A stretch of DNA of 64,000 nt from an uncultured Gemmatimonadota bacterium (GTDB lineage: Bacteria; JAAXHH01), in NCBI GenBank assembly GCA_951812955.1, contig OX638340.1:3424001-3488000 (forward strand), given 5' to 3'. The notes under the pieces were generated by a model. That model saw only the letters and a program-made list of their open reading frames with translations. It did not search any database and was not told where the DNA came from. The position numbers were made by a program, and so were the translations under genes. Positions 43,826 through 43,942 of this stretch are shown here, piece by piece (positions within the stretch are counted from its first letter, which is position 1; each line of letters starts with the position of its first letter).

Positions 43826-43942
43826 TACGATAGAGGTTACATGTAATAGTCGGAGCCTGATCCAAATCCTCGAACTTTTTTTTAAAAAAACTTAAAAAAA
43901 GTTCCATTGCATCGTTCCTTTACCCCATCCCAAAGGATAGTC
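43826..43942. repeat. copy E of the dispersed element, forming the promoter/leader of LRR paralog 3; contains T8-A7-ctt-A7 homopolymer tracts
   Basis: tgtaatagtcggagcctgatccaaatcctcgaacttttttttaaaaaaacttaaaaaaagttccattgcatcgttcctttaccccatcccaaaggatagtcATG. Confidence 0.7.

Follow-up and report, generated by a model that had tools for sequence, protein, structure and literature searches.

A 64,000-nucleotide stretch of contig OX638340.1, from an uncultured Gemmatimonadota bacterium and called the window below, contains three paralogous genes for leucine-rich-repeat (LRR) proteins (LRR1 to LRR3), and upstream of LRR3 lie the homopolymer tracts T8, A7 and A7 with which this analysis is concerned. 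The three genes are part of a 14-kb stretch running from an acetyl-CoA-synthetase-like gene (ACS) to a thiolase gene, and they share it with a gene for a hybrid histidine kinase-response regulator (HK-RR) and with several small open reading frames (ORFs). The order is ACS, (repeat), LRR1, HK-RR relic, small ORF, repeats, LRR2, repeat, LRR3, ORF stump, repeat, HK-RR, small ORF, repeat, thiolase; the neighbouring genes in the window are ordinary metabolic genes. The repeat of this list is a non-coding intergenic element of about 105-155 nt, present in multiple copies that are all co-oriented within the stretch, and the T8, A7 and A7 tracts are the arms and the loop of a conserved AT palindrome at its centre (Table).

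Table. Features of the ACS-thiolase interval, with the tracts and repeat copies first and the genes after them (positions in the window)
Feature	Position	Strand	Description
T8 tract	43876-43883	+	palindrome left arm, last T in loop
Proximal A7 tract	43884-43890	+	palindrome loop; A6 in contigs L001/L002
Distal A7 tract	43894-43900	+	palindrome right arm; A6 in contigs L001/L002
33-bp AT-rich palindrome	43872-43904	+	GAAC-T8-A7-CTT-A7-GTTC; direct reading, DNA fold
Repeat copy c43815	43818-43920	+	left module (..GGTTACATGTAATAGTCGGAGCC..CCTCGAAC), palindrome, then GTTCCATTGCATCGTTCCTT; directly before LRR3
Repeat copy c45750, full-length	45724-45879	+	palindrome 45806-45836, GAAC T7 gatattgcgt A6 GTTC
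Repeat copy c49234, full-length	49208-49364	+	palindrome 49290-49321, GAAC G T6 A5 taatgtt A5 GTTC
Tandem array, 3-4 units (38395, 38493 partial, 38579, 38675)	38395-38809	+	units of about 95 nt, upstream of LRR2
Truncated repeat copy	35937-36039	+	..CGTCCGAGCCTTATTCTCGAAC T5 ACGAAAACACGAAAAAC..; upstream of LRR1
LRR1 (LRR paralog 1)	36168-37343	+	ORF/domain scan
LRR2 (LRR paralog 2)	38924-43750	+	Big_2, LRR, M66-like C-terminal region
LRR3 (LRR paralog 3)	43943-45514	+	signal/lipobox-like N-terminus, Big_2 domains, plant-type LRRs
ORF stump, 35 codons	45617-45724	+	more than 357 aa in strain L001; cut just before c45750
HK-RR	46414-48807	+	hybrid GAF-PAS-HisKA-HATPase-REC-Trans_reg_C protein; repeat copies on both sides
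Small transmembrane + coiled-coil ORF	37850-38227	-	11-aa MREEHAAIREE repeats; divergent from repeat array
Small coiled-coil ORF	48848-49093	-	divergent from c49234

The tracts occupy the middle of the sequence ATCCTCGAAC TTTTTTTT AAAAAAA CTT AAAAAAA GTTCCATTGC (43866-43910), read directly from the window, where their context is ctcGAAC TTTTTTTT AAAAAAA CTT AAAAAAA GTTCcattgcatcgttcc and CTT separates the two A7 runs. They stand at -67 to -43 from the LRR3 ATG (43943), and T8 is the longest homopolymer of the 64-kb window. An earlier note on this DNA, which saw in them length-variable homopolymers inside the promoter element of an LRR lipoprotein gene and a possible case of phase variation, had located the tracts correctly, and it was also right in stating that paralogous copies carry shorter ones (T7/A6 at 45810-45832 and T6/A5/A5 at 49295-49317). 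Its figure of about 63% GC for the genome was not borne out in the window, which measures 0.59; the ACS-thiolase interval has a GC content of 0.54, and the intergenic stretch that holds the tracts one of 0.41.

The repeat is composed of a left module (..CTGTTAT..AGTCGGAG-N13-CTCGAAC), a middle part in which the T run and the loop are followed by the A run and then GTTC, and a right part (GTTCCGTTACCTCGTTCCTTCGTCCAAAGAACATCGGGCGAAC; ..CGTTACCTCGTTCCTTCGTCCAAAGAACATCGGGCGAAC). By alignment and nhmmer, 7-8 copies were located on the + strand between 35.9 and 49.4 kb, at 35937 (truncated), 38395, 38493 (partial), 38579, 38675, 43818, 45752 and 49236; the remaining 50 kb of the window contain only one degenerate copy, on the - strand at about 56990-57070. 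The two most complete copies, 45724-45879 and 49208-49364, are 77% identical over 158 nt. In the tandem units at 38395-38809 the left module is present and the T run is 5 at most, but there is no A-run/GTTC arm. Near the ends of c45750 there is a 7-bp GTTCGCC/GGCGAAC pair, weaker in c49234; target-site duplications were found at none of the comparable junctions, and clear terminal inverted repeats were likewise not seen.

Alignment of the leaders of LRR1, LRR2 and LRR3 indicated that they are homologous only from 43916 onwards, a point about 27 nt ahead of the LRR3 ATG, and that all of the LRR3 upstream sequence beyond -27 is repeat sequence. The sister copies do not serve as leaders of LRR genes, as the earlier note had supposed. 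One of them, c45750 (T7 at 45810-45816, A6 at 45827-45832), lies past the LRR3 stop and 600 nt upstream of the HK-RR gene; the other, c49234 (T6 at 49295-49300, A5 at 49301-49305 and 49313-49317), lies 215 nt upstream of the thiolase gene, to the right of a small coiled-coil ORF of the - strand. The repeat is generic and not LRR-specific, with copies that precede HK-RR and thiolase and adjoin coiled-coil ORFs, and the description of the tracts as the promoter element of an LRR gene specifically had to be given up.

When folded as single-stranded DNA, the palindrome at 43872-43904 forms an 11-bp stem (GAACTTTTTTT / AAAAAAAGTTC) with a free energy of -7.3 kcal/mol (z -2.9), and its 11-nt loop is made up of the last T, the proximal A7 and CTT. 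Stems of 10-11 bp, with z values from -2.9 to -4.1, were predicted by DNA folding for c43815, c45750 and the palindromes of two related contigs, L001 and L024. The tracts are not a chance feature. A/T runs of at least 7 occur 7 times in the window, compared with 2.5 expected under a first-order Markov model, and 4 of these 7 are in the hairpins described here. The motif GAACKTTTTT, of which 0.16 occurrences are expected, is found 5 times, always inside one of the three palindromes, and the motif count over the 64-kb window placed it upstream of none of the other genes.

We then have five complete copies to compare, with T-arm/A-arm lengths of T8/A7 (c43815), T8/A6 (L001), T7/A6 (c45750), T6/A5 (c49234) and T6/A6 (L024). 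The loop is exactly 11 nt long in four of the five (c43815, c45750, L001 and L024), and the loop sequences are unrelated. RNAalifold, applied to the five copies, returned the AT hairpin as the sole consensus structure; the arm sequences are invariant and there are no compensatory changes. The co-variation of the arms and a loop held at 11 nt indicate a constraint on the palindrome rather than on the length of a spacer. Matched arms and a constant loop would fit a protein-bound DNA dyad and a hairpin or cruciform equally well.

The earlier note had called for a comparison of tract length among strains. Contigs L001 and L002, two independent ENA assemblies of the closest strain available that are mutually identical over 2256 nt and 92-95% identical to the window at the nucleotide level, carry GAAC T8 A6 CTC A6 GTTC at the orthologous site: both A runs are 1 base shorter and there is one substitution, yielding a 10-bp stem and, again, an 11-nt loop. 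The 300-column alignment of the window and L001 has 20 substitutions, plus 5 columns with gaps. Positions 43847-43883 (AGTCGGAG through T8) and 43901-43920 (GTTCC..CCTT) are free of substitutions, indicating that the core of the repeat is better conserved than its surroundings; within the palindrome, the changes are in the loop and one arm. Two further comparisons revealed a length difference. In L009, 95% identical to the window, the orthologue of c49234 reads GAAC T8 and the window copy GAAC G T6; in the final repeat unit ahead of the thiolase gene, another T tract is T6 in L021 (reverse complement, about 2100) and T8 in L028 (9850-9870). These last units of L021 and L028 have T6-G where the window copies have A6-GTTC, the run being kept as T and not as A. 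Near-identical assemblies do not differ in this way. L015, L017 and L022 have equal T7 and A7 lengths and differ by substitutions only, L010 and L011 differ at just two sites elsewhere, and at the consensus level there is no length heterogeneity in any of these groups (L001=L002; L015/L017/L022; L010/L011). Over the time in which strains diverge, then, tract lengths do change by slippage. The expected polymorphism was thus encountered between strains, as T8 A6 CTC A6 in L001/L002, and not between near-identical assemblies.

The same comparisons revealed where the strains break apart. In L001, LRR3 lacks window positions 43921-44246 (326 bp), and with them its ribosome-binding site, start codon (ATG), signal peptide and a portion of the first Ig domain; the deletion begins exactly at the right edge of the repeat. 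The L001/L002 allele of LRR3 (400-1755, orthologous to window 43943-45514) is probably a pseudogene. Its gene call, P0002, nevertheless starts at an ATG inside the repeat and stays in frame across the shortened tracts as far as the body of LRR3; we roughly estimate that such an in-frame, stop-free fusion would arise by chance in about 5-8% of cases. Further downstream, c45750 starts 9 nt past the end of the homology between the window and L001. The homology between the window and L009 stops at 49300, inside the T run, and is followed by an unrelated 610 nt with an 87-aa ORF. Three strain differences break at the repeat: the L001 deletion at 43920/43921, the end of the L001 homology at 45714, close to where a repeat starts (45724), and the L009 break at 49300 in the T run.

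Repeat copies are also present in the related contigs L001/2, L009, L010/11, L015/17/22, L021, L024 and L028, and nhmmer did not find the repeat in the more distant L003 and L005-L008, whose protein identity is about 70%. In scans of the sequence collections, a strict DNA pattern for the full palindrome had zero matches in genome or metagenome contigs, a looser pattern for the left module recovered the relatives, and viral contigs gave zero matches. The closest homologues of LRR3 bear names like "MAG: ... Gemmatimonadetes bacterium" (MAG, metagenome-assembled genome), and homologues of the thiolase are encoded on contigs IrcVar142 and PetF of JGI metagenomes, which, from their names, we take to be sponge samples (Ircinia and Petrosia). 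The host bacterium is probably sponge-associated. The protein collection contained no exact match to the window's own LRR3 and thiolase proteins.

The gene order between ACS and thiolase differs widely among these relatives. L021 and L028 have ACS, small ORF, repeats, HK-RR, small ORF, repeats, thiolase, with no LRR gene; L022, L015 and L017 have ACS, small ORF relic, two repeats, a 94-aa ORF, a truncated ORF and thiolase, and lack both the LRR genes and HK-RR. In L027, LRR2 is followed after 12 nt by the ORF that is found downstream of LRR3 in the window, LRR3 and c43815 both being absent. The ACS-thiolase interval (35849-49536) is a hypervariable island, with 0, 1 or 3 LRR genes, an optional HK-RR gene and many gene relics. 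A more distant relative, L024, comes from a 3.9-Mb MAG chromosome whose sole gene shared with the window encodes a collagen-like protein, 39% identical. It contains one copy of the repeat, with a perfect palindrome (GAAC T6 cggtaaatctc A6 GTTC), between two coiled-coil ORFs; the left module and palindrome are 75-84% identical. Collagen-like proteins with GPAGPAG triplets and lipobox-like N-termini are encoded at 55067-56599 and 57418-58452 in the window and at 2270-3625 in L024. The 39%-identical homologue of one of the window proteins adjoins the L024 repeat copy, and the degenerate - strand copy of the window (about 56990-57070) sits between the two collagen-like genes.

Several identities were considered for the repeat and discarded. 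Rfam 15 at gathering thresholds and ARAGORN, run over the window, gave nothing relevant to a known RNA or tRNA, and Rfam at E<=1 over 35800-49600 gave only one chance-level match, elsewhere. An intrinsic terminator was rejected: the stem consists of GAAC and A/T only, the T run is part of the stem, and a terminator scan found none in 43750-43943. RNAalifold on 10 left modules found no covariation that would speak for a structured RNA there, and a 5' hairpin (CTGTTA-N4-TAACAG), although 80% paired, was no better than shuffles.

We also considered the possibility that the module codes for protein. One frame of all copies reads ..DVSVISxSRSPIRILELF.., with CGG, CGT, CGA and AGA at one Arg position. 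Yet the start codon is not consistent, the tandem units are out of frame and there is no Pfam hit. An exhaustive search of 1.84 billion representatives gave P0333 as its sole match, and this protein aligns (residues 60-97) only with the downstream gene relic and leaves the module uncovered; the opposite-strand frames of L009 and L024 differ mutually. Readings of GAAC(T)n as an ECF-sigma, sigma-28 or Bacteroidetes-type promoter were set aside because the -10 spacings, judged by eye, are inconsistent between copies. An integron attC site was rejected too: CTCGAAC is complementary to GTTCCGT, GTTCTGT or GTTCCAT only over GAAC/GTTC, and no integrase was present among the 20 scanned ORFs.

The explanation that we favour, in which we place about as much belief as doubt, is that the repeat is a cis-regulatory or architectural element of double-stranded DNA, prone to recombination but not a dedicated ON/OFF switch. 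It would act as a portable site in divergent intergenic regions, either as an operator or as a promoter-proximal AT dyad, and could be bound by the island's own OmpR-type hybrid regulator (46414-48807): HK-RR is, from its domains, a candidate DNA-binding regulator of the OmpR type. The repeat would have been copied in one orientation through the strain-variable island, and its multiplicity would make it a preferred breakpoint for rearrangement. The tract lengths would then be inherited along with the palindrome and change slowly through slippage, and would not be a high-frequency ON/OFF switch. Since the repeat supplies everything beyond -27 of LRR3, it probably carries what drives or modulates this gene; the alternative for LRR3 is read-through from LRR2.

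A number of observations weigh against this explanation. It is from position and conservation alone that we infer a regulatory role. The distance from GAAC to GTTC is not constant (31 or 33 bp), a difficulty if the binding protein is a rigid dimer. The A-run/GTTC arm is missing from many copies, among them the tandem units, so that the palindrome is not essential to every copy. Both thiolase (49398-49440, kept in L021/L028) and HK-RR (46200-46290) appear to own AT-rich promoter regions downstream of the repeat, and c49234 and c45750 may do nothing for these downstream genes. Finally, the tract lengths differ in both orthologous comparisons at about 5% divergence (c43815, A7/A7 vs A6/A6; c49234, G+T6 vs T8); together with the T tract of L021/L028, these differences imply that slippage is active and that a tuning role is possible.

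An alternative, which we hold to be unlikely though worth weighing, is that the repeat is a recombination site or a non-autonomous mobile element. A recombinase or transposase encoded elsewhere would recognize the hairpin and its flanks, or the repeat would merely provide homology, and LRR1-3, HK-RR and the small ORFs would be inserted, deleted and duplicated at the repeat, as with attC sites, palindromic elements derived from IS200/IS605 and Correia-type miniature inverted-repeat transposable elements (MITEs). In keeping with this, co-oriented copies stand between every gene of the hypervariable island, and the unit formed by repeats, HK-RR, small ORF and repeats (L021, L028 and the window) resembles a segment flanked by direct repeats. 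Three strain differences have their break at the repeat (the L001 deletion edge, the L009 T run and the ORF cut 9 nt before a repeat), LRR3 is missing from L027 together with its repeat copy, and the left module and palindrome have kept their similarity in the distant MAG L024. Yet a Pfam scan of 20 ORFs across the 64-kb window, which was non-exhaustive, found no integrase or transposase, and the only inverted pair resembling element ends is the 7-bp one of c45750. The GAAC/GTTC flanks are non-complementary, unlike R'' and R' of attC, the copies in the 64 kb are confined to one island instead of being dispersed, and the pattern has no matches in viral contigs. Furthermore, ordinary homologous or illegitimate recombination also predicts breakpoints at repeats.

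Slipped-strand phase or volume control of LRR3, the proposal of the earlier note, seems to us quite improbable. In this scheme, TCGAAC (43870-43875) would be a -35 and TAAAAA (43893-43898) a -10 hexamer, T8, A7 and CT would form a 17-nt spacer, and slippage would switch or tune LRR3. The same -35/-10 reading, applied to the three complete copies of the window, yields spacers that are 17, 16 and 18 nt long, and in L001 a spacer of 15 nt with TCAAAA, where the loss of the start codon and signal peptide would fit a dead promoter. Differences in tract length between strains at two orthologous copies and in the L021/L028 T tract are in its favour, as are the fact that the sequence of LRR3 beyond -27 is supplied wholly by the repeat and the plausibility of LRR proteins as host-interaction proteins. 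Set against this, TCGAAC matches the -35 consensus at 3/6 positions, a simple promoter scan did not call the site, and TAAAAA is an automatic product of the palindrome arm. Equal tract lengths in near-identical assemblies, and the same tracts in copies that precede housekeeping or regulatory genes, also argue against a switch; the co-variation of the arms and the 11-nt loop point to a constraint on the palindrome and not on a spacer. LRR3 may moreover be co-transcribed with LRR2, because no terminator was found in the 193-nt gap between the LRR2 stop and the LRR3 ATG (scan of 43750-43943). The tracts of 7-8 nt fall below the cut-off of the Neisseria phasome, where phase-variable tracts are taken to be T of at least 11 or G of at least 9 (PMC5953494). 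We found no literature on Gemmatimonadota promoters. The 1-nt polymorphism between strains is real; the short tracts, the lack of gene specificity, the stable lengths in near-identical assemblies and the constraint on the palindrome leave slipped-strand phase variation weakly supported.

We see a slight chance that the repeat acts as a transcribed RNA element, that is, as an A/U stem-loop in intergenic or 5'-untranslated RNA that would, for example, stabilize the 3' end of the LRR2 message or serve as a processing site. Such roles in 3' stabilization and processing of mRNA have been shown for REP and ERIC-type repeats. The repeat does lie between the co-directional genes LRR2 and LRR3 with no terminator found between them, the hairpin is predicted in the RNA folds of 3/3 complete copies, and the right part contains a second small hairpin with a compensated difference (CTGG..CCAG vs CGGG..CCCG in c45750 and c49234). 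But folding the whole element brought no improvement over shuffled sequences (z -0.1 to -1.1 on either strand of c45750 and c49234), alignments show no covariation, the stem is weak, being nearly all A-U pairs, and Rfam gives no match. It is similarly far from probable, in our judgement, that the repeat is the junction site of an undescribed gene-shuffling system by which eukaryote-like LRR surface-protein genes and their regulator would be inserted, deleted and duplicated in the island. The structure recognized would be the AT hairpin, whose loop is fixed at 11 nt, and the homopolymer arms would in addition provide heritable tuning of the promoter delivered to every gene newly inserted.

Rather than as a phase-variable promoter, the feature is better described as an intergenic repeat that is new and restricted to the lineage; it contains an AT palindrome and lies in a strain-variable island of eukaryote-like LRR genes. 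Recognition between sponges and the bacteria they harbour has been ascribed to LRR and other eukaryote-like proteins. Here, the number of LRR genes varies from 0 to 3 among close relatives at one locus, and a conserved short repeat stands at every junction. If the repeat drives this variation or carries a tunable promoter, it would offer a handle on the diversification of host-facing surfaces in uncultured symbionts. If it is only passive, the lesson is more limited: a homopolymer in this lineage should first be examined for its place in the repeat, and only then be taken as a sign of phase variation.

The small ORFs of the island deserve a few words. Small coiled-coil ORFs, encoded on the opposite strand, are the left-hand neighbours of the repeat in the window and at most of the related loci. 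In L021, L028 and L024, the repeat is flanked by ORFs that share the architecture of the one at 37850-38227 (with DRVEAKLSDKI repeats in L024). The one at 37850-38227 is built of 33-nt tandem repeats (37908-38087) and has no confident Pfam family; directly upstream of its start are five tandem 13-nt motifs with a 26-nt period (38230-38300; CCGTTCCTCT..), the CGTTCC motif of which recurs in the right part of the repeat. Two gene relics were recognized: 37545-37796 corresponds to the 3' end of an HK-RR gene and is about 80% identical to 48618-48806, and the translation of 45900-46030 matches the repeat protein P0333 with an E value of 6.5e-07. Upstream of thiolase, 49370-49505 contains a 28-nt palindrome, an AT-rich block (GTATATAGGATATTAATACCATAATATAG, kept in L021 and L028) and two copies of a 33-nt direct repeat (GCACGCTCATCACAGTTGAWCTCGCWCTGGCTA); this is probably the promoter or operator of thiolase itself. 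Within the coding region of LRR2, an A7 run (40939-40945) is a potential frameshift-prone site and would be usable as a slippage control.

Other repeats were noticed elsewhere in the window. Tandem repeats of 17 nt with a 34-nt period (GATCGAGGTAATTAGGC / AATCGAGGACACTCGGC) occupy 25955-26071, between an NHL-repeat gene and a paralogous GAF-PAS-HK-REC-Trans_reg_C gene (26211-28613), and could be regulator binding sites. A 30-nt tandem repeat of 5-7 units (CCACAKGACTCGGKCAMGGTTYCRTCGYGG; 10124-10333) overlaps the end of an aldo/keto-reductase gene region.

How, then, does the element compare with known systems? Phase-variable tracts in promoter spacers are known from Neisseria porA and opc (poly-G/C), Haemophilus hif (TA repeats) and Mycoplasma hyorhinis vlp (poly-A). 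Like these, the tracts upstream of LRR3 are homopolymers (of A/T) that stand 43-67 nt ahead of a gene whose product is a putative surface lipoprotein, permit a -35/-10 reading and differ by 1 nt in length between related strains. Unlike them, they are only 7-8 nt long, form the arms of a palindrome in a multi-copy repeat that also precedes non-surface genes, and display no length heterogeneity within a population at the assembly level.

In having inverted arms exactly 11 nt apart in 4/5 complete copies, a variable loop and a location in divergent intergenic regions, the palindrome also recalls the T-N11-A dyads of LysR-type regulators. It differs from them in that no LysR-type gene was seen beside the repeats and that its arms of 10-11 bp (GAAC and T run) are much longer than typical half-sites. 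The OmpR-type family, to which the candidate regulator of the island belongs, usually binds direct repeats.

Integrons provide a further comparison. Their core sites are R'' (RYYYAAC) and R' (GTTRRRY), the recombining site is a bulged structure of the bottom strand, and attC clusters without an integrase do exist. As in attC or Vibrio VCR arrays, similar hairpin repeats separate co-oriented genes in a strain-variable array, and the AAC/GTT core is reminiscent of the core sites. Unlike in attC, the stem is of 10-11 bp and not an extended bulged structure, and the 'cassettes' are 1.6-5 kb long with divergent ORFs.

The last group to be compared is that of the REP/BIME, ERIC/IRU and Correia elements. 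Our search against Rfam found no sequence similarity to a described repeat family. The window copies differ from this group in being clustered and co-oriented in one island and partly arranged as tandem units of about 95 nt, and their stem is almost pure A/T and not GC-rich, with no clear terminal inverted repeats or target duplications. Like REP, ERIC and Correia elements, however, the repeat is a non-coding, multi-copy intergenic element of 100-160 nt with a central stem-loop, it coincides with rearrangement breakpoints, and it may carry promoter-like or mRNA-stabilizing signals. By this comparison, the palindromic intergenic repeats of the REP, ERIC and Correia type would be, among the known systems, those that the element resembles most.

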